Source of the DNA: Halalkalibacterium halodurans | GTDB lineage: Bacteria > Bacillota > Bacilli > Bacillales > Bacillaceae_D | Assembly: GCF_004376175.1 (NCBI RefSeq) | Contig: NZ_SNUY01000011.1 | Span: 49,941 to 81,940, forward strand | DNA: 32,000 bases | Direction: 5' to 3' | Shown: positions 12,715-31,893 of the stretch, in pieces | Numbering within the stretch: the stretch's first letter is position 1 | Layout of the letters: each line of letters begins with the position of its first letter | Translations under genes and position numbers: made by a program | Notes under the pieces: generated by a model | Databases searched by the model: none | The model's input: the letters and a program-made list of their open reading frames with translations, nothing else | Told to the model about the DNA's origin: nothing

Positions 12715-12905
12715 TTAAAGGCGGGAACAAACAGGCCGCCTATCTGCATTACCTTTTACACAAACGAAATATTCCACCAAGCGAATTGAAAGAATTGTTA
12801 ATGGGACCTAAGGAATGGAGAATTTTTATTTTTGCATCTGTTGGACTGCAAATAGAGGAAGAAATAAAAGAAAGAGAAGAGATTGAAAGAAAAAAACATA
12901 AATAG
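12235..12905 (+). CDS. Frameshift-extended tail chaperone (G/GT-like; extension corresponds to the XkzB position)
   Basis: My hand translation of the -1 frame from 12711 is [64 protein letters not shown]. It stops exactly at the tape-measure start region. Confidence 0.6.
12705..12711 (+). other. Candidate -1 programmed ribosomal frameshift heptamer A_AAA_AAC
   Basis: The zero-frame reading is GCA AAA AAC TAA. The -1 frame is open from here to TAG 12903-12905. Confidence 0.65.
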
Positions 12906-12925
12906 TGAGAAGGGAGGGGGAAAAG

Positions 12926-15900
12926 TTGGCAAAATTCACAGCAAAATTCGATTTAGAAGATCTAATATCAAAAAAACTTAGACGTATGTTGAAAAGGCTA
13001 GAGGATACCGATAGACTTGCTAAACGCTTAGGTTTAATTGAGATGAAAGCAAAAGATGGTGTGTCCCCTACGCTTCGGCGTGTCGAAAAGCGCTTAACTA
13101 ATCGAAACTTTCAAAAGCATGAAACACTGCTTCTTGCGGATGCTAAACGGTTTGAAAAAACGGTGAAATCGACAGGGATTAAGCTTAAGAGACATCTTCC
13201 AGAATCAATGGAGATATCGTTCCTAGCAGATGATCGAGTGACAATTCGGGCAAAGCGCATTCAAGATAATATTCGTCGCAAGCTAGGGAAAGGTCATGAA
13301 TATACGATTCAGGCTAATGATAAAGCGACACCTGTAATGCATCGAATTGCTAACTATGCAAAAAGGCAACTATCAAAAGGTTATAATTTCTCTGTCAGAG
13401 CCATCGACATTGCATCCAAAACAGTTGGACGAATTGCTTCATACGCTGGGACGGCAATCCCAAAGTATAGAGATTTCACAATCCGTGCTATTGATACTGC
13501 TTCCGGGGTGATAGGCTCAGTAAAAAGAGCGTTGTTCTCTATACCAACTTTAATTACTGTCACCCTTGCCATGGTGGGGGTCAATAAACTGACGGACTCC
13601 ACAATTGGTGCTGCTATGACCTTTGAACAATATCGAGTTTCCATGGAGCACTGGCTAGGAGGGGACAAAAAAGCAGCTGATGAATTAATCAAATGGATGG
13701 GCAAATTCGCAGACAGTACTCCTTTTAGCTCCCCTGATTTGTTCCCGGCGTTAGTTGAGGGAGTCAGTTTGTCTGGAGGCGATATTAATGGCGCACAGCG
13801 TTATTTAAAGATTGCTGCTGACATGGCGGCAATGACACCGGGACGGACTGTGGAGGAAGCAATGATGGCTTTAAGTTCTGCTAAAATGGGAAATTTTGAA
13901 ATGATGAAAGGATTCAGAGTGAATGTGACACAAGAAGATTTTAAAGCCATGGGTGGATGGGACGGCTTTACTGAAATGGTTGAAGGAAAATTCTTAGATG
14001 GTGCTGAAAAGTTGTCCGAAACTGCCCATGGTGTCCTTTCAACCCTTCAAGGTTATCGCGCCTCTTTGCTACGAACCTTTGGAGATGGATTACTTGGTCC
14101 TATGAAACCTAGACTTGACGCAATTAATGAATGGTTGGATGAGAACCAAGAGACATGGGAACGGTGGAAGGATGTTGTTTGGCGTCACGGAGAAGAGGCC
14201 TCTGAGTGGATTTTTTCTCACTTGGAAAAAGGTTTTAATTGGGTAAGATCAAGATACCTAGACAATGAAGATTTTATGAGTTTGGATTTTAAAGGAAAAA
14301 TAAAGTTTATCATGGATGATTTGGGTGCATGGTGGGATCGCACCGGGCGCCCTTGGCTAACTGACGTAGCTAAGGATGTAGGAAGCGCTATATTTGATGG
14401 AATTGTTTGGGGTGTAAAAGAAGGGATAAAAAGCATCGGTAGCATGTGGGTGGAGGCTTTCAAAAATCCTTCTACCGATAATTTCGCAGGCGCGGGGATT
14501 TCCACTCTGATTGCAACGTCGCTTGCTTCGTTGGTCTTAGCTCCATTGATTAAAGGTTTTGGAACTCTTTATAAAGTAGGTAAATGGATCTTTGATCGTG
14601 GCAAACAGTTAGGGGGATTATTTGGGGGTAAAAGAGGAGGTGGCCCCAAAGGAGGCTCAGCTGGTGGCCGAGGAGGAAATAGCTCACCAGCAGGATCACC
14701 ACGGACTGGACGCTCACCTTTCATTCCAGGAGGTAAATTCCCGAGTTGGCTCAAAAAAGCAGGACGTAGGGTGCCATATCTAGGTCCTCTCTTAGCGGGG
14801 AGCGCTTTGATAGGAGGAGACCGAGATCGCCTTGGCGCAAATCTTGGGGGATTGCTCGGAGGCATAGGTGGAGGAGCTGCAGCTGGTGCTGCAGTCGGTA
14901 GTATTTTTCCGGGTGTAGGCACAACCATAGGCGGTATCGTCGGGGGTATCGCTGGTGCATTCGGTGGCGAAAAGATCGGCGAATGGATACAGAACAGCGG
15001 GATACTAGAAAAAATCTCGGATACCCTTTTCAACGGAGAATGGTGGCGCGAGAAATGGAATAGCGTCACTGACTACGCTAAAAACCTATATGAAGGCTCT
15101 TGGCTACAAGACACTATAACCGCTATCGACGATACTCTCTTTAGCGGTGATTGGTGGAGTCAAAAATGGGATGGTGTTACGGACTTTGTTGATAACAAAC
15201 TATTAAACGCTAGTTGGTGGGCTGAACAAGCCGGCTATATGTACGGTTATCTTGAATCGACCGTGTTTAGCGGAGAATGGTGGAGTCAGAAGTGGACCGA
15301 TGCCGGTGAGTGGGCTAGTAACCTATATGAAGGTTCATGGCTTGAAAAAACAGTGACATCTATCAACGAAACCATTTTCAACAAAGAGTGGTGGGGCCAG
15401 AAATGGGAGGACACCAAAGCATGGGCGCAAGAAAAATGGGATCAAGCCGTCGCAGTATGGGACTCAGTAACCCAGAAAATTGACGAAACGATATTTAACA
15501 AGGAATGGTGGAGCCAAAAATGGACAGATGCCAAAGCATGGGCTCAGCAAAAATGGGATGAAGCTCAGGCTGTATGGGAGTCCGTAACAACAAGAATTGA
15601 TGAGACCATCTTTAACAAAGAATGGTGGGGTCAAAAATGGGACGATACCAAGGCGTGGGCTCAGCAAAAATGGGATGAAGCTCAGGCTGTATGGGAGTCC
15701 GTAACAACAAGAATTGATGAGATCATTTTTAACAAAGAGTGGTGGAAAGGAAAATGGAATGATGTCATTGGTTGGGGAAGGAAGCAGCTCGAAGGTCTCA
15801 CTGATTGGTGGGATGGTGTAAAAAGTAGCTTCAACAGTGGTCGTCAAAGCGGGCAGACAGCTGCAAGAGGAAGCGGTAGCGGTGTTGCTCAACGAGGATC

Positions 15901-17527
15901 AGAAACCCCATATGCCAATGGCGGCTTTATCAACCGTCCACACCTTGGATTGGTCGGTGAGGCAGGACCAGAGGTTATCATTCCACTTTCATCGAATCGC
16001 CGAGGCCGCGCTCTCGATCTCTATCAAAAAGCAGGTGCAGCCCTCGGAGTTCGACCGTATGCTAATGGCGGCTTAGTTGGTGGCTCTGTAAAAATGCCTA
16101 AATCCCAACCGGTTCAAGCATCTGTAAGTGTTGGATCAGTATATATGCAAGGTGCAACAAAAGAAGCAAAGCAGTATGGAGAATCAATCACAGCTGCAGT
16201 TGCGTCGGGTATCAATGACACGGTCGTACCTATCAACAATTGGAGAAAGAACAACATTGAAACTCCAATGCAAGGTGTGGTCAAAGAAGCTGTCGGATTT
16301 GGCTCTAGTACGGTCAGGTCGTTTTCAACTGGTCAAAATGCAACACCGACCAAAACGGATGCTTATCTAGACAGACAGGTCCGATCTCCATTCCGCGTTA
16401 TCCAAGGCGGAGCGTCTCAATGGGGTTCTGGCACAGTCACAGGATTCCGTTCTGGTCAAGATTCTACCTCTACAGGAACAAGACCTTATCTTGTGTCCAA
16501 TGTCCATACGCCTTTCGATGAAACGAAAGGCAAAGGAAGAGGATGGGGCGCAGGCACCGCGAGTGAATTTGTCACTGGAATGCGTTCTCAATCTAGTCAA
16601 GTGACGGAAGCTGCAAAATACTTGGCCAAACAAGTTGAGAAGACGTTTAAAGAAGAGCTTGGTATTCACTCCCCTTCACGCGTCATGATGGAACTTGGTC
16701 GATTTGCTTCGCTAGGTATCGTAAAAGGTCTCGGAGCTGTTGACATCAAGAAATTTGCTGAGAAACAGGCAGGCTCTCTTGCAGCAGCATTCTCAGGATT
16801 AGGAGCTGTTGGTGGGAACATATCACAGTGGATTCAAGCGGCCATGATGATCACCGGTGTCCCATCTTCGTGGTTAGGACCATTAACCATAATTGCACAA
16901 AAAGAGTCGGGCGGAAACCCTAGAGCCATAAACTTGTGGGATATCAACGCCAAGCGTGGTATTCCGAGTAAGGGGTTAATGCAGACCATTGATCCTACCT
17001 TCAACGCCTACAAAATGCCGGGGATGAACGATATCTACAACCCGATTCACAATGCTGTTGCCGCGATCAGGTATATTGAATCGCGTTATGGCAATGTGTT
17101 TAATGTACCTGGTATTCGCAGCATGGCCCGAGGTGGAGCATATCGCGGCTATGCTAACGGCGGACTGATCACCAAGGATCAAATCGCTCGTGTAGGTGAA
17201 GGGAACAAGCGTGAGTGGATTATTCCAGCTGAGCGCGGCATCCGTGGCAGATACTTGCTCCATCAAGCGGCTGCCGATCTTGGCATGTCGGTTGTGGATC
17301 AAGGAGCCGGCGAGACTGTAGACACTGATACGGTTCAGGTTGCTACAAGACCGACAACTAACAGCAAAGTGGTGGTTGCGTCCGAACCGAGCGTGCAACT
17401 GATCATTCAAGGGGATCAACATTTTTATGATGACACCGATAAAGAGGCATGGTTTAGAGAAATGGAACAACGCTTAACAAATGCAATACGTGAAGCACGT
17501 CAGAATGGCGCAAGTGAGGTGTATTAG
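12926..17527 (+). CDS. Tail tape measure protein with a C-terminal lytic transglycosylase (SLT) domain
   Basis: Start set at TTG 12926, 5 nt after GGGAGGGGG; the track's GTG at 12905 lies upstream of that RBS. Contains a Gly-rich segment, Trp-rich repeats, an LGIHSPSRV motif, the SLT motif [15 protein letters not shown]...GLMQ, and three ANGG...GE-G-E-IIP-type motifs. Confidence 0.95.
15362..15770 (+). repeat. 117-nt (39-codon) tandem repeat, about 3.5 units, inside the tape measure gene
   Basis: Units start at 15362, 15479, 15596 and 15713. Each encodes [12 protein letters not shown]-x-Q-K-W... The stretch gctcagcaaaaatgggatgaagctcaggctgtatgggagtccgtaacaacaagaattgatgag recurs identically at 15542 and 15659. 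Confidence 0.9.
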
Positions 17528-25276: not shown

Positions 25277-25504
25277 ATGATGTTTGATACAGGAAGCATT
25301 GCGCGTTTTTTCGGTTTGATTGCTGCACTATTGGCGTATTTCGGGGTAAATGTGCCAGAGGATTTAACAGAGGCGGTTACTAGTTTTGTTGTTGCCGCTC
25401 TAGCAGTTTACGCTGCATGGAAAAACAACTATATCAGCAAAAAAGGGCATGAACAAAAGAAAGTTTTAGAGGAAGCTGGTCTAAAGAAAGGGGAGATCGA
25501 GTAA
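25277..25504 (+). CDS. Holin (XhlB / SPP1 holin family)
   Basis: Two TM segments. The motif AAWKNNYISKKG matches the XhlB-type W-x-K-N-N-Y-x-T/S-x-K-G signature. Confidence 0.85.
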   Translation: MMFDTGSIARFFGLIAALLAYFGVNVPEDLTEAVTSFVVAALAVYAAWKNNYISKKGHEQKKVLEEAGLKKGEIE

Positions 25505-26670
25505 TGGGATATAGATTCGAGAAACTTTCACAGTTATCCGATCAACGGAACCGATTAAGAAAAAAGGGGAATTATTCAAAACGTACACAGCCTATCACTG
25601 TTCGTGCTTGGCATCATTCTTTGACTAAAAAACATTCTGCAGGTTCGACCGCTGCCGGATTTGCAAATTATCATGTGGGGTCTTTAGGATGGCCTGGTAT
25701 TGGCTATACGTTTGTGATCGAACCACAAAATATAGTAAATACACCAAACGGTAAGCGGGCAAGAATTGTATATTGCCATGACATTGATCGTCGTACTTAT
25801 CATGTTGGTAACAGCAACTCATTTGCATTAGGTATTTGTGTTGCAGGCGACTATCGAACTGAACAGCTAGATCAACCGACCTTAGCGTCAATTGCAGATT
25901 TACACTCGGCGTTAGTAGCCGACAAGATCGGAAGTAGTGACAAATCACACCACGAATTTCCGGGATACGCTTGGAAACAGTGTTGCACATTTGATTATAA
26001 AAAGGCATTTAAGGCACAGTCGCCGTCTGATCAAACCAACACAAAACCTCCAGCCACTGTACCTTCAACGTACACGATTCAAGAAGGAGATACATTCTGG
26101 AGCATCGCCCATAAAAATAGCGCAACTGGAGTAACAGTGGAAGGTTTGATTAAAGCCAACCCTGGAGTTGATCCAACTAAACTTAAAGTTGGCCAAGTCA
26201 TCAATTTTAATACAAAAGCTAGTAAGTCAAACAACGAACACAAACAATCCCAATCTGGTGCTTCTAAGGCTAAACCAAGTGGTGACCCATATGTACGTAA
26301 TATCCAACAGTTTGTAAACAGCTATGGATTCAGCATTGCGGTTGACGGGATCGCGGGACCGCAGACGATGAGAGGTCTGGTGCGAGTTTTGCAAACGGAG
26401 CTCAATAAACAATTTGGGCGCGGTCTTGTCGTTGATGGCATCTTTGGCCCACGAACACGGGCGGCATTAGTCAATGTGAGAGCAGGGGCACGCGGCAACC
26501 TCACTCGTGTATTACAGGCTTTGCTGTACATCAAGGGCTATGATGTTGGCCCATTTGACGGCATCTTTGGCGGAAAAACAGAGACGGCTGTAAGATCGTT
26601 TCAGCGCGCAAACAGGTTGACCGTGGATGGGATTGTCGGCCCTCAAACTTGGGCGGCATTACTTAGTTGA
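25504..26670 (+). CDS. Endolysin: N-acetylmuramoyl-L-alanine amidase (Amidase_2/PGRP) + LysM + PG-binding repeats
   Basis: Amidase core: GWPGIGYTFVIEP...YHVGNSN...GICVAGDY. LysM: YTIQEGDTFWSIA...VGQVINF. PG_binding_1-like repeats: VDGIAGPQT, VDGIFGPRT, VDGIVGPQTWAAL. Confidence 0.95.
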   Translation: MGYRFEKLSQLSDQRNRLRKKGNYSKRTQPITVRAWHHSLTKKHSAGSTAAGFANYHVGSLGWPGIGYTFVIEPQNIVNTPNGKRARIVYCHDIDRRTYHVGNSNSFALGICVAGDYRTEQLDQPTLASIADLHSALVADKIGSSDKSHHEFPGYAWKQCCTFDYKKAFKAQSPSDQTNTKPPATVPSTYTIQEGDTFWSIAHKNSATGVTVEGLIKANPGVDPTKLKVGQVINFNTKASKSNNEHKQSQSGASKAKPSGDPYVRNIQQFVNSYGFSIAVDGIAGPQTMRGLVRVLQTELNKQFGRGLVVDGIFGPRTRAALVNVRAGARGNLTRVLQALLYIKGYDVGPFDGIFGGKTETAVRSFQRANRLTVDGIVGPQTWAALLS

Positions 26671-26874: not shown

Positions 26875-27084
26875 TTAAGCGTTGGTAGTGTTAAGGTAAT
26901 GATACTCAAATCCGTATTCTGTTTCCTTTTCTTCGTACCAGTGAGCATAGCGTAATCCTTGCTCGTTTTCCGCTTCTACCTTTTCTTGCATGTCGATCCC
27001 TGCTTCAATTGCGAGGTCGCTAGATATTACCTCACCAGGGCATCCTACATTGTCACTGTAAACTACATAAATCTTTTCCATCAT
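26875..27084 (-). CDS. Small acidic protein of unknown function (69 aa)
   Basis: GGAG RBS and its own operator-bearing promoter. The sequence is rich in E/D/Y (MMEKIYVVYSDNVGCPGEV...EKETEYGFEYHYL). Confidence 0.65.
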   Translation of the reverse strand: MMEKIYVVYSDNVGCPGEVISSDLAIEAGIDMQEKVEAENEQGLRYAHWYEEKETEYGFEYHYLNTTNA

Positions 27085-27149
27085 TTTTTCTCCATCCCTT
27101 CACCTCATCCGGTATCTCCGGCTTGTTGGATTATTTTATGTCTTCCCTT

Positions 27150-27190
27150 GCTGTTATTTATAATATATCATAGAAATAACAGCATGTAAA
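27150..27190 (-). promoter_or_regulatory. Sigma-A-type promoter with an overlapping 10-bp palindromic operator
   Basis: Minus strand: TTTACA (27190-27185), N17, TGaTATATT (-10 at 27167-27162). The inverted repeat GCTGTTATTT 27150-27159 / AAATAACAGC 27174-27183 spans the -10 and the start site. Confidence 0.6.
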
Positions 27191-27204
27191 TAGTTATATG
27201 AAAA

Positions 27205-27429
27205 TTAATTTTGTTTTTTAAAAGTTTTTTTGTTACGTGCGTATTCTTCAAGGTCTGCACGTAAGTACAGCCTTGTTTTGCGCACCGCTCCAAACTCCAC
27301 AAAAGGCTCAATCTTTCCTGTAGCCACCGACTGATTAAAGCCGTGTACAGATTGACCCGTGATGTCTTTTGCTTCGTCCTGCATGACCAAGTTTTCTTTT
27401 ATCCATTTCCTTACTTCTTCTTTATTCAT
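27205..27429 (-). CDS. Xis/MerR-like helix-turn-helix protein (74 aa)
   Basis: Start at the ATG at 27429, 6 nt after AAGGAGG; the track's 122-aa version overlaps the upstream gene. It forms an ATGAATAA overlap with the 213-aa gene. Motif: V-M-x-x-EA...GKIEPF...RLYLRADLEEY. Confidence 0.75.
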   Translation of the reverse strand: MNKEEVRKWIKENLVMQDEAKDITGQSVHGFNQSVATGKIEPFVEFGAVRKTRLYLRADLEEYARNKKTFKKQN

Positions 27430-28063
27430 TGTTGTCCTCCTTATCATTTTTTCTATTCCCGTGTTTCGGCATCTTTTCGGCAAGTATATCAAGGTCATCT
27501 TGCCAATAAAGTTTGATGCTTGCCCTTTCGCCCCCAACGATTTTGAATGGATATATTTCATATAACTCTGCATATTTGACGAATGTGAGTTTTGAGCATT
27601 TTAAGTATTCGAGCGCTTCGGTTTGAGAGTAGATTTTTTTCATTGCTTCTTCTCTCAACCTTATCTTTCGGGCACGCTCTTTTACTTCGTTCCACTTCAT
27701 TTGTGTGTTCGCGAGTATCGAGGTGTGGGATGGTCTTCGGTTTGACGATGCCCAACCGTTATACTCTTGAACTGAAAAATTGCTATGGCCGAAATGCTCA
27801 ATTGCTTCCACTAATGCCTGGATATAATCTGTTCTTTTATACCTTGGTACTGGCTTCCCCCTCCGTGCAACATTGTGAGGTAGTGGAGAGTCTGTCTTGG
27901 GAAACAAGTCCGACCAATGGGCGTTAAGATAGGTAATAAGCGTTGGAGACCGTGGTAAACCGTTTTCCTTTGCCCAAACATCATAATCATTTTTGGATAT
28001 ATATCCATGTTCTTTTTTTGCGCGCTCATATGCATTGATAATATCCTGCATGCTATACGACAT
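27422..28063 (-). CDS. DNA-binding protein: two homing-endonuclease-associated-like repeats plus a C-terminal Xis-like HTH, with no nuclease domain
   Basis: There is an internal duplication: QDIINAYERAKKEHGYISKNDYDVWAKENGLPRSPTLITYLNAHWSDLF versus TDYIQALVEAIEHFGHSNFSVQEYNGWASSNRRPSHTSILANTQMKWNEVK. The C-terminus (TEALEYLKCSKLTFVKYAELYEIYPF...KLYWQDDLD) is paralogous to the 74- and 80-aa HTH proteins. Confidence 0.7.
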   Translation of the reverse strand: MSYSMQDIINAYERAKKEHGYISKNDYDVWAKENGLPRSPTLITYLNAHWSDLFPKTDSPLPHNVARRGKPVPRYKRTDYIQALVEAIEHFGHSNFSVQEYNGWASSNRRPSHTSILANTQMKWNEVKERARKIRLREEAMKKIYSQTEALEYLKCSKLTFVKYAELYEIYPFKIVGGERASIKLYWQDDLDILAEKMPKHGNRKNDKEDNNE

Positions 28064-28090
28064 ATATTTACCTCTCCCCTCCGTTTTCTT

Positions 28091-28129
28091 TGTTATATAA
28101 ATAATAACATATGATTTTATATATGTAAA
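28091..28129 (-). promoter_or_regulatory. Sigma-A-type promoter with an overlapping inverted repeat sharing TGTTAT/ATAACA half-sites
   Basis: Minus strand: TTTACA (28129-28124), N17, TGtTATTAT (-10 at 28106-28101). The inverted repeat is TGTTAT 28091-28096 / ATAACA 28104-28109. Confidence 0.6.
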
Positions 28130-28197
28130 GAGTTTTCTAAAACTTTTTTCAAGGAATATTCAAAAGAGGGGAGAACCTTTATTTTAGAGGTGATCAC

Positions 28198-28395
28198 ATG
28201 GAGGTAAAGAACAAACTCAAATCAATGCGCCACGCACACGAGATGGATCAAAAGCAATTTGCCGAAAAACTCGGATTGCGGCAAGAACAATATAACCGCT
28301 ACGAGCGGCAGGCAAGGCAGCCGACTCTGAAAATAGCACTAGAGATAAGCGCTAAACTCAATATGACAGTCAACGATTTATTTTATTTAGAATAG
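28198..28395 (+). CDS. XRE/Cro-C1-family HTH transcriptional regulator (65 aa)
   Basis: The classical HTH_3 pattern MDQKQFAEKLGLRQEQYNRYERQARQPTLKIALEISAKLNMTVNDLF, with a GAGGTGA RBS. Confidence 0.9.
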   Translation: MEVKNKLKSMRHAHEMDQKQFAEKLGLRQEQYNRYERQARQPTLKIALEISAKLNMTVNDLFYLE

Positions 28396-28455
28396 GACAG
28401 GCAATATTTATACCAAACTGGCATACACTGTATCATCAAAAGGAGGATGATACAC

Positions 28456-28704
28456 ATGCAAGTAATAATGCCGTTTCATCGACGATTGGCTGAACTGGCC
28501 CACATTCAAAAATCGAGGGAACTGACAGAACAGGAATATGATGATTTTGATTTGTGCATCAAAGCTAATATGTACTATGTACAAAAGCTAACAGGTTTGT
28601 ATGAGTTGAGTTACTTGGCAAGCGTGACACAAGATGTAGAATGGCAACATGAGATTTGTAGTAAGATCGATGAGGTTGTTGTAGGTAAGCGAAAAAAGAA
28701 GTAA
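28456..28704 (+). CDS. Hypothetical helical protein (82 aa) downstream of the XRE gene
   Basis: Start moved to ATG 28456, 9 nt after AAGGAGG. The basic C-terminus overlaps the terminator stem. Confidence 0.6.
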   Translation: MQVIMPFHRRLAELAHIQKSRELTEQEYDDFDLCIKANMYYVQKLTGLYELSYLASVTQDVEWQHEICSKIDEVVVGKRKKK

Positions 28705-28720
28705 AAAACTTCTTTTATCT
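28695..28720. terminator. Bidirectional AT-rich terminator
   Basis: AAAGAAGT 28695-28702 pairs with ACTTCTTT 28708-28715. T-rich sequence follows on the plus strand, and TTTTTTCG follows on the minus strand. Confidence 0.6.
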
Positions 28721-28721
28721 A

Positions 28722-28750
28722 TTTACATTTGTCATGAGATTTGATATAAT
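28722..28750 (+). promoter_or_regulatory. Near-consensus extended -10 sigma-A promoter for the small peptide operon
   Basis: TTTACA 28722-28727, N17, TGaTATAAT (TATAAT at 28745-28750). Confidence 0.7.
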
Positions 28751-28774
28751 TAAAGTAGAAAGGGGGGAGATAAA

Positions 28775-28912
28775 GTGGATTGGGAAAAGTTAGTCCTTCT
28801 TTTAGCTTCCATATCAGGCATCTTTGCTGGTGTCACCACAGGAATGAAGAACATCCAAGAAATGAAAGCTAAAAGAAAGCGACGTCCTCGGTCAAGGAAA
28901 CGTCGCAAGTAA
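28775..28912 (+). CDS. 45-aa membrane peptide with a poly-K/R tail (type I toxin-like; not in the ORF track)
   Basis: GTG 28775, 4 nt after GGGGGGAGA. The translation is MDWEKLVLLLASISGIFAGVTTGMKNIQEMKAKRKRRPRSRKRRK. 12 of the last 15 residues are K/R. Confidence 0.6.
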   Translation: MDWEKLVLLLASISGIFAGVTTGMKNIQEMKAKRKRRPRSRKRRK

Positions 28913-28919
28913 TACCTAG

Positions 28920-28937
28920 GGGGAGGGAAACCTCCCC
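28920..28937. other. 7-bp GC hairpin with a GAAA tetraloop, without a U-tract
   Basis: GGGGAGG-GAAA-CCTCCCC. It would sit at the 3' end of the peptide mRNA and at the extreme 5' end of the predicted antisense RNA. Confidence 0.6.
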
Positions 28938-28970
28938 ACATAAAAATTATACCACAATCCACTTAAAAAT

Positions 28971-29126
28971 ATGAGAGGCCAACTGATTTTGAACGGGTCT
29001 TTGGTTGTTTTATGTCTAGTGGTAATGGATTGGAACTTTGGATCGTGGCTAGACTATGCTCTATTAGGAGTAGCTATAGTTCTTTCTTCCATTACACTCT
29101 GGAACTTATTAATGAAGGGTGACTGA
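28971..29126 (+). CDS. Possible second small membrane protein (45-51 aa; start uncertain)
   Basis: The frame is open from ATG 28971 (no RBS) or from TTG 28989 (AGAGG 10 nt upstream). It ends 2 nt before the TTG start of the 80-aa HTH gene. It is hydrophobic: ...LVVLCLVVMDWNFGSWLDYALLGVAIVLSSITLWNLLMKGD. Confidence 0.3.
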   Translation: MRGQLILNGSLVVLCLVVMDWNFGSWLDYALLGVAIVLSSITLWNLLMKGD

Positions 29127-29128
29127 CG

Positions 29129-29371
29129 TTGTACAAATTCGATTCGAAAGAGGAGCTTTTGGAGTTTATTAGCCGTGAAGTCCTAATGACTAGTGAAGCT
29201 AGCGAGTTTTTGGATGTTTCGCGGCAGCGTATGAGCGAACTAATACGCGCAAAGAAAATTACACCAATCAAAAAATCGCGTGGTTCCAGTTTATTTCTGC
29301 GTGAGGATCTTGAGCAAAAGAAAAAAGAGCTTGAGCAGCTCCGCAAAAAATACCGCCCTTATGATGAGTAG
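29129..29371 (+). CDS. Xis/MerR-like helix-turn-helix protein (80 aa), paralogue of the 74-aa protein
   Basis: TTG start 6 nt after GAAGGGTGA. It aligns with the 74-aa protein along its whole length (EELLEFISREVLMTSEASEFL...KKITPI...LFLREDLEQ). Confidence 0.75.
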   Translation: MYKFDSKEELLEFISREVLMTSEASEFLDVSRQRMSELIRAKKITPIKKSRGSSLFLREDLEQKKKELEQLRKKYRPYDE

Positions 29372-29386
29372 GGGCGGTATTTTATT
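29347..29386. terminator. Bidirectional terminator between convergent genes
   Basis: ATACCGCCC 29350-29358 pairs with GGGCGGTAT 29372-29380. An A-run precedes it and TTTTATTG follows. Confidence 0.8.
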
Positions 29387-29393
29387 GATCACC

Positions 29394-30161
29394 CTATTGT
29401 ACAAAGTGAGGATATACCATTTGTCCATCTACTACATCTAATAAATTAGCATAATTAAAATTATCCCAATTGATTTTATCCATTGTTTCACGGGACATCC
29501 ATGTTTCCATCACTGCTTCCTCCTCGATGTTCCCGTATTGGTCTTGCATAGGAAAAGTAATTGATATCCATACTTCGTCTATACGTTTATCGCTTGATAG
29601 CTGACGATAGGCTATGGTGGAATCTTCGTAAAAACCCCTGCCAATTGATTCGTCAGACCAGCCGTCTTTTCCTTTAACTGTTGCCATCAGCGAATTGTCA
29701 CTTTCATCAAATTCTATACTTACGATCGTTTCATCGATCGGATCATCCCCAGATTTGAAAATGTCATATAGAATGTCCTTTGAATCCTCTAGTACTGTCC
29801 CTTTCTTCTTTTCTGATTTTTGTTTTTTAGAATCTTTATTAGATTCTTTATCAGATTCTTTTTTGTTTGGGGCAGGCTCTTCTTCGTCAGCAGCTTCAGC
29901 TTCCTCATCTTCTTCTGTGGTTTCTAGCGCTATTACCTCAGTATCATTTTCCTCTTGTTGTACCACGTCGTCGCTATTTACTAAGTATGTGATGAATCCA
30001 ATTAAACCGATAATAAAAGCAGAAGCACCGCTTAGCAGAACGATTCTGTGTTTTTTTCCTCGTTTTTCTCTATCCCTGAACAAATTAACTATAAAGAGTA
30101 CGATTCCTACTAATACAGTAATCAGTCCAACAACAGAAAGTAGGAAAGATATAACTCCCAA
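29394..30161 (-). CDS. Two-TM membrane protein with an acidic/lysine-rich linker and a C-terminal globular domain of unknown function
   Basis: TTG start 9 nt after AAGGGGG. The TM segments are VISFLLSVVGLITVLVGIVLFIV and IVLLSGASAFIIGLIGFITYLV. A candidate promoter is TTGAAA (30224-30219), N17, TATATT (30201-30196). Confidence 0.8.
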   Translation of the reverse strand: MGVISFLLSVVGLITVLVGIVLFIVNLFRDREKRGKKHRIVLLSGASAFIIGLIGFITYLVNSDDVVQQEENDTEVIALETTEEDEEAEAADEEEPAPNKKESDKESNKDSKKQKSEKKKGTVLEDSKDILYDIFKSGDDPIDETIVSIEFDESDNSLMATVKGKDGWSDESIGRGFYEDSTIAYRQLSSDKRIDEVWISITFPMQDQYGNIEEEAVMETWMSRETMDKINWDNFNYANLLDVVDGQMVYPHFVQ

Positions 30162-30252
30162 TATGGTTAACCCCCTTTAGAGTATTTATATGGTAAATAT
30201 ACGTTTTGATGGCCTTATTTTCAATCATTAAATCAAAAGGACCGAGTAAGGT

Positions 30253-30600
30253 TTATATTTTACTAGCGCTTTTTAAGCAGTCAATCTTTACATAATAAAT
30301 ATCGTCATCACCAAAAACTACTTTTATTTGTTTAAGTTGCTGATCTATTTTAGAGATGTGGCCAACGACAGTTTGATAAAACCCTTCATGCCAATATGTG
30401 ATACTTAAGGGGTATTGTTGATCTATTGAATCCATTATGAGGTAACCAATTTCTTGTAATTCTTGTTCGTCGAGTGTAGGTTTTGAAACTTTTTTTGATT
30501 CAAATTTATATTGTTGCAGAGCGGATATATGCTCAGGCAGCATAAAGCGAGACGACTCCCATCTTAAATTTGTTCCTGGTGTTAGCTTATTTTGTTTCAT
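30253..30600 (-). CDS. YolD-like protein
   Basis: 115 aa. The N-terminal pattern R-W-E-S-S-R-F-M-L-P-E-H and the overall size match the YolD-like family of Bacillus. GGGAGG RBS. A LexA box lies in its promoter. Confidence 0.8.
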   Translation of the reverse strand: MKQNKLTPGTNLRWESSRFMLPEHISALQQYKFESKKVSKPTLDEQELQEIGYLIMDSIDQQYPLSITYWHEGFYQTVVGHISKIDQQLKQIKVVFGDDDIYYVKIDCLKSASKI

Positions 30601-30768: not shown

Positions 30769-31893
30769 ATGTCTTTTAAAAACTTAGTATCAGGTAAAAA
30801 ATTGCCTGTTATATTTATTGGCTCCGGCCTAAGTAGAAGATATTTAGATAGTCCTGATTGGGATAACTTATTAATAAAAACATTGCAGTTTATAGGTAAA
30901 AACGAGCGGGATTTTAAAAGGCTAAAATCGCGAATAAAGAATAAGCCTGAGAATAGAAATTTAATTAATGGTGAAATAAATGCAAAAGTCGCGGCAGAGA
31001 TTGAAAATGAATTTAATGAATTCTTTTATGAAAGTGATTTAATTGAAAAGTATCCGGATTGGCTAGACGAAGGAGTTAATCCTTTCAGAAAATGTATTGC
31101 TACAATTCTACAAGGGTTAAATGTTATGAAAGAAAAAGAAGAAGAGGTTTCTTTATTTAAAGCTTTAAAAAACAAGACAATAGCAGCTATTACTACTAAT
31201 TATGATACCTTATTAGAGCAGTTGTTTAACTTACCTAAAGAAAGTATCTTCATTGGACAACCTCAATTATTTAATCCTAATTCTCTTGATCTAGGTGAAC
31301 TTTACAAGATTCATGGATGTGTTACAGACCCAAATAACATAGTTATTACAGAGCATGATTATAAAAACTTCAAGAATAATGCAAAACTATTTACTGCGAA
31401 GCTCTTAACTTTAATTAGCGAAAATCCTGTGATTTTTATAGGCTACTCAATTGATGATCCCAATATGCAACAGATCTTAAGTGATTTAGTAAGTTGTTTA
31501 TCATCCGAACAAATCAAAAGTCTAATTAATCATTTTTATTTTGTAGAGTATAATGAAGGGGAAGAGAATCTAATAGAAAAAGAGTACCTTTTTGAAGCGA
31601 AATCTTACGATGGTAAACTCTCAGTTTTTCCTATATCAATTATTAGTACTGATAATTACGCAGAAGTATATAAAGAGCTAGCTAAATTAACACCAACTAT
31701 GAATATCAATACAGTAAAACAAGTAAAAAGAATTGTTAAAGATATTGTGTTAGAGTCTACAGAAGCTCAAAGTGGTAACGAAGAGGTGTTGACTATTCTC
31801 TTAGAAGATATAAACAAACTATCTGAAACTAAACAGAAGTTTGCTATTGCTATTGGTAACGTAAAAGAAATTACCTCTATAGCCCCTAAATGA
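30769..31893 (+). CDS. SIR2-like (SIR2_2 family, NADase-type defence) protein, probably 3'-truncated by an IS insertion
   Basis: Motifs: LPVIFIGSGLSRRY (glycine-rich NAD loop), TTNYD (Asn144), KIHGC (His182), VIFIGYSIDDPN. GGAGGTG RBS. The stop TGA 31891-31893 coincides with the terminal TG.. of the IS. Confidence 0.85.
   Translation: MSFKNLVSGKKLPVIFIGSGLSRRYLDSPDWDNLLIKTLQFIGKNERDFKRLKSRIKNKPENRNLINGEINAKVAAEIENEFNEFFYESDLIEKYPDWLDEGVNPFRKCIATILQGLNVMKEKEEEVSLFKALKNKTIAAITTNYDTLLEQLFNLPKESIFIGQPQLFNPNSLDLGELYKIHGCVTDPNNIVITEHDYKNFKNNAKLFTAKLLTLISENPVIFIGYSIDDPNMQQILSDLVSCLSSEQIKSLINHFYFVEYNEGEENLIEKEYLFEAKSYDGKLSVFPISIISTDNYAEVYKELAKLTPTMNINTVKQVKRIVKDIVLESTEAQSGNEEVLTILLEDINKLSETKQKFAIAIGNVKEITSIAPK

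Follow-up and report, generated by a model that had tools for sequence, protein, structure and literature searches.

The yonT/SR6/yoyJ locus of the Bacillus subtilis prophage SPbeta is a toxin-antitoxin system of type I (Fozo et al. 2010, PMC2887945; Reif, Loeser and Brantl 2018, PMC5848175). Its promoters pyonT and psr6 have been shown experimentally to be sigma-A promoters with extended -10 boxes (PMC5848175). No Rho-independent terminator follows yonT, which is represented by a polycistronic mRNA plus a short form of 217 nucleotides (nt), and SR6 is about 100 nt long, overlaps the 3' end of yonT by about 65 nt and also occurs as a minor 215-nt form that extends to pyonT (PMC5848175). SR6 shortens the half-life of the yonT mRNA, with a role for RNase III credited to Durand et al., and affects the stability of this mRNA when supplied in trans from a plasmid (PMC5848175). 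To date, the YonT/SR6 pair is on record only from elements of the SPbeta type in the B. subtilis group (PMC5848175, section 2.9), and the search for YonT carried out here returned members only in such elements of that group. The locus described below, at 28722-29386, lies in a 32,000-nt stretch of contig NZ_SNUY01000011.1 (positions 49,941 to 81,940; assembly GCF_004376175.1), the whole of which is referred to as the window. The locus appears to be a type I toxin-antitoxin module of the yonT/SR6/yoyJ design, a reading to which we assign a probability of roughly 65%, with transcription and toxicity argued from yonT/SR6 and its relatives.

The features of the locus, including two small open reading frames (ORFs) that encode transmembrane (TM) proteins, are as follows (aa, amino acids).

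28694-28716, both strands: AT-rich bidirectional hairpin (-9.1 kcal/mol, plus strand; -9.9 kcal/mol, minus strand; z about -4), flanked on either side by U runs

28722-28750, plus strand: sense promoter with TTTACA (-35, 28722-28727), 17 nt and the extended -10 TGATATAAT (28742-28750)

28759-28769, plus strand: Shine-Dalgarno (SD) sequence AAAGGGGGGAG, with a predicted anti-SD pairing energy of -17.5 kcal/mol

28775-28912, plus strand: putative toxin gene with a GTG start, 45 aa (MDWEKLVLLLASISGIFAGVTTGMKNIQEMKAKRKRRPRSRKRRK), whose product has a TM helix at its N-terminus (residues ~6-22) followed by a polybasic tail

28920-28937, both strands: GC hairpin after the stop codon, GGGGAGG/CCTCCCC, -16.0 kcal/mol on the plus and -13.9 kcal/mol on the minus strand, with no plus-strand U-tract

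28946-28975, minus strand: predicted antisense promoter with the extended -10 TGGTATAAT (28954-28946), a weak -35-like CTCATA (28975-28970) and an 18-nt spacer

28871-28939, minus strand: predicted antisense RNA (antitoxin candidate) of ~68 nt, starting at G28939, ~7 nt past the -10

28871-28906, minus strand: predicted intrinsic terminator of the antisense RNA, hairpin 28906-28879 followed by UUUCUUUU (28878-28871), within the codons of the lysine/arginine (K/R) tail

28971-29126, plus strand: second small ORF (51 aa) with two TM helices and without an SD sequence, the positional equivalent of yoyJ

29129-29371, plus strand: HTH_17 (excisionase-like) gene, the last of the operon (Pfam HTH_17, phrog_4691)

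29353-29386, plus strand: strong intrinsic terminator closing the operon, -24.1 kcal/mol, z -6.9, followed by UAUUUUAUU

The window and SPbeta correspond part for part. Both have an extended -10 sense promoter, a very strong SD sequence and a GTG start, and in both the toxin, putative in the window, is shorter than 70 aa and combines an N-terminal TM helix with a polybasic tail. A hairpin that lacks a U-tract stands directly past the stop codon, and a convergent extended -10 antisense promoter, predicted in the window, follows 30-45 nt past that codon. In SPbeta, as in the window, where it is predicted, a short antisense RNA begins with a hairpin and ends at a terminator with a U-tract that is complementary to Lys codons of the tail. 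A two-TM ORF with a poor SD sequence or none lies immediately downstream on a polycistronic sense transcript (predicted for the window), and both loci are located in prophages with an Xre-type helix-turn-helix (HTH) gene upstream. The order in SPbeta is the yonT stop codon, the hairpin, the antisense -10 and the membrane ORF yoyJ; the motif TGNTATAAT is found there at pyonT, psr6 and pyonU, and the Rfam SR6 model recovers SR6 at 1415-1312 of the SPbeta sequence with 128 bits. The two loci differ in the length of the antisense RNA (~68 nt predicted for the window versus ~100 nt for SR6), in the end of the operon (the HTH_17 gene in the window versus yonU/yonV in SPbeta) and in the host element, which is a contractile-tailed prophage of a Halalkalibacterium halodurans relative rather than SPbeta. 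The second ORF without an SD sequence recalls the yoyJ remnants of other Bacillus species, which lack a ribosome-binding site (PMC5848175).

The toxin-candidate gene is preceded by strong expression signals. The sense promoter matches the consensus at 11 of 12 positions plus TG and is the top promoter-like site in the 2.5 kb scanned (27500-30000), with transcription expected to start at ~28757. It is kept in pHS18-7, a 4.7-kb plasmid of B. thuringiensis, and in the H. halodurans loci. For the peptide ORFs of three other loci the SD pairing energies range from -17.4 to -20.2 kcal/mol. The related loci carry the labels L001 and L003-L005 (H. halodurans), L006 and L007 (Logan contigs), L008 (SPbeta) and L011 (pHS18-7). 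Shorter than 70 aa, with one N-terminal TM helix and then a strongly basic C-terminal tail, the window peptide agrees in build with the YonT family: its best 15-residue Kyte-Doolittle hydropathy is 2.44 (residues 6-20), compared with 2.63 for YonT, and 12 of its 15 C-terminal residues are K or R, compared with 10 of 15 in YonT. Among the 319 six-frame ORFs of 25-80 aa in the 32-kb window, it alone combines a hydropathy of at least 2.0 with at least 8 K/R in the last 15 residues, and 100 shuffles produced none. The related NCBI assembly represented by L003 has no annotated gene in the corresponding interval. The initial annotation had identified a near-consensus extended -10 promoter, a strong ribosome-binding site and an ORF at 28775-28912 encoding a hydrophobic helix and a tail with 12 K/R among 15 residues, and each of these is borne out by the values above. 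Absent from that account were the SD-less two-TM ORF (28971-29126) and the HTH_17 gene, which complete the operon.

A HMMER scan of 1.84 billion representative proteins returned a single relative of the window peptide, P0005 (50 aa, 42% identity, E = 4.9e-4), which is located on the Logan contigs L006 and L007; P0005 used as a query returned only itself. In a codon-aware alignment of the window and L006 peptides, 24 of 46 aligned residues are identical, 15 of these 24 are encoded by different synonymous codons, and the differences at codon positions 1, 2 and 3 number 19, 12 and 28. Judged from these sequences, the substitution pattern is that of selection on the plus-strand peptide frame, and the peptide is a real gene. 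The same pattern bears on the proposal that the real gene is instead a 70-aa minus-strand ORF at 28962-28750, or that the whole arrangement arose by chance in AT-rich intergenic DNA. A 61-aa minus-strand ORF does occur in L006, as the 70-aa ORF does here, but the codon-position pattern fits the plus frame, and the 70-aa ORF, which was rejected as a gene, has no ribosome-binding site and a start that lies upstream of the only minus-strand promoter. It is best seen as a by-product of the tail, because the complements of K/R codons contain no stop codons and such a stretch is naturally left open. Chance is excluded by the uniqueness tests together with the recurrence of the arrangement at other loci, and the proposal as a whole is highly improbable.

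The opposite strand carries a second set of signals. The motif TGNTATAAT occurs twice in the 32 kb, as a convergent pair flanking the peptide ORF; the number is ordinary (1.3 expected), and the placement is the unusual part. The antisense extended -10 that had been placed at 28954-28946 is present as TGGTATAAT, and its -35-like hexamer CTCATA overlaps the start codon of the two-TM ORF. An RNA starting from this promoter would be perfectly complementary to the 3' untranslated region together with the toxin ORF's last ~41 nt. It is predicted to fold into GGGGAGG-UUUC-CCUCCCC, then the bulged hairpin 28906-28879, then UUUCUUUU, with -29.1 kcal/mol and a z score of -3.5. The hairpin at 28920-28937 has two roles, in that it would close the short toxin mRNA at its 3' end and form the 5' terminus of the predicted antisense RNA. 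It does lack a plus-strand U-tract, as had been noted, but the GNRA cap previously ascribed to the antisense 5' hairpin is misplaced: the loop reads UUUC on the antisense RNA, and GAAA belongs to the sense strand. An equivalent hairpin of other sequence follows the stop codon in L006, L011, L003 and SPbeta.

The predicted antisense RNAs of the window, L006 and pHS18-7 share with SR6 the succession of 5' hairpin, terminator hairpin and U-tract, with fold z scores of -3.5 (window), -1.4 (L006), -4.1 (pHS18-7) and -3.3 (SR6). The positions of the terminators encoded in the tail, the stabilities of their hairpins on either strand and the distances from the stop codon to the antisense -10 are as follows.

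Window: terminator at 28871-28906; hairpin -14.5 kcal/mol antisense versus -13.6 kcal/mol sense; gap 33 nt

L006: terminator at 433-459; hairpin -16.1 kcal/mol antisense versus -11.3 kcal/mol sense; gap 28 nt

pHS18-7 (L011): terminator at ~561-612; hairpin -17.5 kcal/mol antisense versus -11.1 kcal/mol sense; gap 41 nt

SPbeta (L008): terminator at ~1312-1362; hairpin -24.6 kcal/mol antisense versus -17.9 kcal/mol sense; gap 46 nt

The hairpin is more stable as antisense RNA in all four loci because G-U pairs turn into A-C mismatches on the other strand. The terminators were taken from the folds; an automatic finder, whose limits on hairpin length and U count are over-strict, missed those of SR6 and L006. 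In the window the terminator stem derives from Arg CGN codons and the U-tract from Lys/Arg AAA, AGA and AAG codons. Throughout the four YonT-like loci, the stem corresponds to Arg and neighbouring tail codons and the U-tract to the complement of Lys-rich codons. With the terminator lying within the tail codons, protein and RNA constraints therefore fall on a single stretch of DNA. The window and L006 terminator hairpins have a common topology (6 bp, bulge, 5 bp, 4-nt loop) built from different sequences, which, with so few sequences, is suggestive. The main antisense RNA probably ends after ~68 nt at the terminator within the tail codons, as SR6 does within its own, rather than spanning the whole mRNA. 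It had been annotated as fully complementary to the peptide mRNA and ending at the hairpin 28695-28715; this probably does not hold for the main form, which is predicted to end at the terminator at 28906-28871, although such a transcript would match the minor 215-nt form of SR6. The minus-strand T-tract reported for that upstream hairpin is confirmed, as the hairpin folds both ways with U runs on both strands. It likely terminates the upstream DUF7667 gene, and a long antisense RNA formed by read-through could also stop there.

The same anatomy recurs at loci that have diverged widely from the window. Across the module, blastn detects no similarity between L006 and the window, yet L006 contains the promoter TTGACT-17-TAAAAT and an SD sequence of -19.9 kcal/mol; its peptide starts at a GTG codon and combines a TM helix with a polybasic tail, and the locus also has a GC hairpin with no U-tract and a two-TM ORF with no SD sequence. 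In 3.4 kb of L006 the motif TGNTATAAT occurs once, as the minus-strand TGTTATAAT just past the hairpin, and the module is present there without an HTH_17 gene. L006 and L007 represent one locus, from which L006 differs by a 1.7-kb insertion right after the module terminator (904-2587) that carries three genes, one of them for a ParE/YoeB-type toxin. A blastn comparison of the region with plasmids gave a match to the promoter and start region of pHS18-7, a small Mob plasmid. Its operon consists of TTTACA-17-TGATATAAT, a 68-aa peptide starting MDW, a GC hairpin, a minus-strand TGATATAAT, a two-TM ORF and an HTH_17 gene, and its peptide is similar to that of the window (BLASTP E = 1e-6). The plasmid contains exactly two TGNTATAAT sites, which form the convergent pair; two sites were found in 0 of 200 shuffles. 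The flanks and the sense promoter of the window are also found at the H. halodurans loci (L001, L003-L005), where a minus-strand TTCATA-17-TATAAT stands at the equivalent place. They encode (L003 4279-4660; L001, L004 and L005) an unrelated 34-aa peptide without a polybasic tail (MLDEIEKILRIIFYIASVSWITKQWFDKKSDKKD) and a different two-TM ORF. This variant looks, from the sequences compared, like a cassette replacement at a fixed slot.

These loci also bear on a simpler explanation, namely that the membrane peptide, the two-TM protein and the HTH_17 protein form a plain operon that serves the phage or plasmid in some nontoxic accessory capacity (superinfection exclusion, for example, or the control of excision or replication), and that the minus-strand TATAAT is silent or irrelevant. 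The three genes do occur together in the window, in H. halodurans and in pHS18-7, with no terminator between them in the window and a strong one past HTH_17; the toxicity of the peptide is only putative, and no curated toxin model was reached. An operon of this kind, however, does not account for an opposite-strand extended -10 at one place in four divergent loci (window, L006, pHS18-7 and SPbeta), and the SPbeta site is a proven promoter. Nor does it account for the TTCATA-17-TATAAT at that place in H. halodurans, for the antisense-strand terminator kept inside the tail codons, or for the L006 module, which does without HTH_17. We consider this explanation unlikely. The type I toxin-antitoxin locus proposed in the initial annotation gains from the part-for-part match with SPbeta, from the anatomy of L006 and pHS18-7 and from the link that pHS18-7 provides between the window peptide and YonT.

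Downstream of the peptide, the two-TM ORF has an SD pairing energy of only -0.4 kcal/mol (-0.4 to -1.5 kcal/mol across the window, L006 and H. halodurans). It is similar to its counterpart in pHS18-7 (BLASTP E = 3e-6), whereas BLASTP found no similarity between the window and L003 two-TM ORFs or between the L003 two-TM ORF, the one compared, and SPbeta YoyJ. The window HTH_17 protein is 42% identical to the pHS18-7 protein at the equivalent position. Sense transcripts had been expected to read through into these downstream genes, which agrees with the polycistronic yonT mRNA. Because the hairpin past the peptide has no U-tract, sense RNA polymerases must cross the antisense promoter, whose -35 region overlaps the start codon of the two-TM ORF. 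The convergent promoter could accordingly act by transcriptional interference, with polymerase collision limiting read-through into the two-TM ORF and HTH_17, as a switch rather than an antitoxin. The association with HTH_17 recurs, even beside the unrelated peptide of L014, a viral contig. Interference alone, however, has no need of the short, structured and terminated antisense RNA that is conserved; SPbeta SR6 acts in trans on the stability of the yonT mRNA, and HTH_17 is absent from L006 and SPbeta. An interference role in place of an antitoxin is improbable, although the two roles are not mutually exclusive.

For a type I module, the proposed sequence of events is as follows. The strong sense promoter and ribosome-binding site would direct synthesis of the 45-aa membrane-active peptide, the putative toxin, from a transcript that would either end or be processed at the hairpin lacking a U-tract or read through the two-TM ORF and HTH_17 to ~29386. 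The convergent extended -10 (28954-28946) would give rise to a ~68-nt antisense RNA with a stable 5' hairpin and a terminator in the K/R-tail codons. By analogy with SR6, RatA, SR4 and SR5, RNase III would then cut the duplex of sense and antisense RNA and keep the toxin mRNA low.

The relationship to YonT rests on pHS18-7. Its peptide matches YonT with a BLASTP E value of 5e-4, LDIVEKVQTMK being aligned to LTIVEKVRNLK, and scores 25 bits (E = 1.5e-5) with the NCBIfam YonT model NF047537, below the cut-off of 45 bits (YonT itself scores 110 bits). Since this peptide is similar to both the window peptide and YonT, distant common ancestry of the latter two is likely, as far as sequence similarity can indicate. 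The hhalign comparisons of small peptide alignments with YonT were uninformative, and with MAFFT the part of the pHS18-7 peptide that resembles YonT is aligned as an insertion. In its sequence signals, the locus has the arrangement by which T1TAdb defines YonT/as-YonT, an antisense gene on the 3' side that overlaps the mRNA and the ORF. The two-toxin arrangement of yonT/SR6/yoyJ has, in addition, a second membrane-protein ORF directly downstream whose 5' end and ribosome-binding site are covered by the antisense RNA; here the two-TM ORF is present, but without an overlap and without an SD sequence.

Several observations weigh against the type I reading of the locus. The window peptide, P0005 and the H. 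halodurans peptide have no hit to NF047537, an equivalog model, at E ≤ 10, and in direct comparison of the window peptide with YonT, BLASTP gives E = 2.8 and hhalign a probability of 4-5%. The Rfam SR6 model RF02892 (gathering score 55 bits) has no match in the window at 27000-30500 (E ≤ 10), where the scan gave only noise, or in L006 (E ≤ 1). By the curated definitions, as applied to these sequences, the locus is not a member of the YonT/SR6 family. The -35 element of the antisense promoter is poor (3 of 6 matches), although SPbeta psr6 is itself weak, and the predicted antisense RNA, starting at ~28939, leaves the start and ribosome-binding site of the second ORF uncovered, in contrast to SR6, whose overlap with yoyJ is 30-40 nt. 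In L006, the antisense fold taken alone is not significant (z -1.4), and the -10 is placed so near the hairpin that the first transcribed nucleotide would fall within the stem. Neither a clear antisense terminator nor a polybasic tail is present in the H. halodurans variant, and there are only four independent relatives.

The surroundings of the module, with the genes given below, are those of a phage element. The window (G+C content, 42.9%) covers the late region of a contractile-tailed prophage, with PHROG matches to terminase, portal, head protease, tail sheath, baseplate and tail fibre proteins; the tape-measure gene was assigned to 12905-17527 from size and position only. The nearest relatives of the flanking genes are in H. 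halodurans, at ~80% protein identity. An accessory block, of which the YonT-like module is one part, is located after the lysis genes.

25504-26670: endolysin gene

27205-28063, minus strand: two HTH_17-like ORFs of the accessory block

28198-28395, plus strand: Xre-type HTH gene, 65 aa, upstream of the module

28447-28704, plus strand: DUF7667 gene, 85 aa, directly upstream of the module

Past the HTH_17 gene, minus strand: membrane protein gene of the accessory block

30253-30600, minus strand: YolD-like gene

30769-31893, plus strand: SIR2 gene (SIR2_2 domain), a 374-aa ORF at the prophage end, adjoining the YolD-like gene

The two minus-strand ORFs at 27205-28063 (122 aa and 213 aa) overlap, and each has an HTH_17-like end segment. 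The 122-aa ORF matches phrog_4691 only from residue 48 on, so its true start is probably an internal Met past the stop of the 213-aa ORF. The Xre-type HTH and DUF7667 gene pair is kept at ~80% identity in H. halodurans, and a word-index search of 5.8 billion proteins returned only three with DUF7667. Matches of the SIR2_2 protein are to PDC-S25, a candidate defence family (E = 4e-91), and to ThsA-type SIR2 models; the matching profiles are ~520 aa long, compared with 374 aa for the ORF. In H. halodurans L003, a minus-strand gene for an LXG-domain polymorphic toxin (587-2116) lies between the endolysin gene and the module and has no counterpart in the window.

Wider searches for the module added few loci. 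A tblastn search for similar peptides, which the initial annotation had suggested as a check, found none in the phage collection with the window, P0005 and pHS18-7 peptides as queries, and near and distant DNA searches of that collection with the locus returned nothing. Scans of genome contigs with the DUF7667 alignment and the peptide alignment, and of metagenome and viral sequences with the peptide alignment, were likewise empty. The DNA pattern of the conserved hairpin-to-promoter spacer was not found in viral contigs, and its one match, L009, was rejected as chance, with no peptide nearby. Of the loci related through HTH_17, L013 has no peptide module. L014, reached by the same route, contains at 1613-2222 the promoter TTGATA-17-TGGTATAAT, a strong SD sequence and a 38-aa peptide with the reversed layout of a polybasic N-terminus and a C-terminal TM helix, followed by a convergent TGCTATAAT, a 31-aa TM ORF and HTH_17. 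This 4.2-kb locus has six TGNTATAAT sites (0.63 expected), among them a further convergent pair (2294 on the plus strand, 2990 on the minus strand).

Taken together, these loci invite the tentative and rather doubtful proposal that the interval from the conserved sense promoter to HTH_17 is a plug-in slot for cassettes of toxin peptide, antisense RNA and second membrane ORF, exchanged among Bacillaceae prophages and small plasmids. In the YonT-like cassettes the tail would be doubly constrained, its CGN Arg and AAA/AAG Lys codons also forming the stem and U-tract of the antitoxin terminator, and HTH_17 would regulate this module specifically instead of acting as an excisionase. If so, the toxin tail and the antitoxin 3' end would co-evolve, because the tail codons also encode the terminator. 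On the main, type I reading and apart from the slot proposal, the yonT/SR6/yoyJ design extends to a contractile-tailed prophage of an alkaliphilic member of the Bacillaceae, a Logan assembly contig and a mini-plasmid of B. thuringiensis, in peptides and RNAs so diverged that curated protein and RNA models miss them. On that reading the locus exemplifies type I systems that evade homology searches, for which the convergent extended -10 pair, the TM helix with polybasic tail and the antisense terminator in the tail codons are still usable signals. The locus is also a compact setting in which overlapping constraints from protein and RNA on a single stretch of DNA can be tested, and the annotation of the prophage gains two previously unannotated small genes and one predicted small RNA.

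Among other type I systems, txpA/RatA of the skin element, bsrG/SR4 of SPbeta and bsrE/SR5 of P6 resemble the window locus in the convergent 3' overlap of toxin and antisense RNA, the prophage location and the small hydrophobic toxin, and in these systems RNase III assists the decay of the toxin mRNA (PMC5848175, section 3.1; T1TAdb). Their toxins differ from the window peptide in having no long polybasic tail, and no second membrane ORF lies downstream. The window peptide had been likened to BsrG as well as to YonT; the likeness to YonT stands, through the anatomy and the pHS18-7 peptide. Searches of Pfam and NCBIfam gave no relevant family hit for the window peptide, the presence of a BsrG model there being unverified and BsrG itself not having been compared directly. 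With no such hit, no shared tail and no shared second ORF, the likeness to BsrG is therefore unsupported beyond the general class. The plasmid par (Fst/RNAII) and hok/sok systems likewise place a small membrane toxin under the control of an antisense RNA, and the occurrence of a relative on the 4.7-kb pHS18-7 suggests that modules of this type may have a similar stabilising role. In par and hok/sok, as T1TAdb also records, the antisense RNA targets the translation-start region, whereas the contact predicted for the window involves the 3' end of the ORF and the 3' untranslated region.

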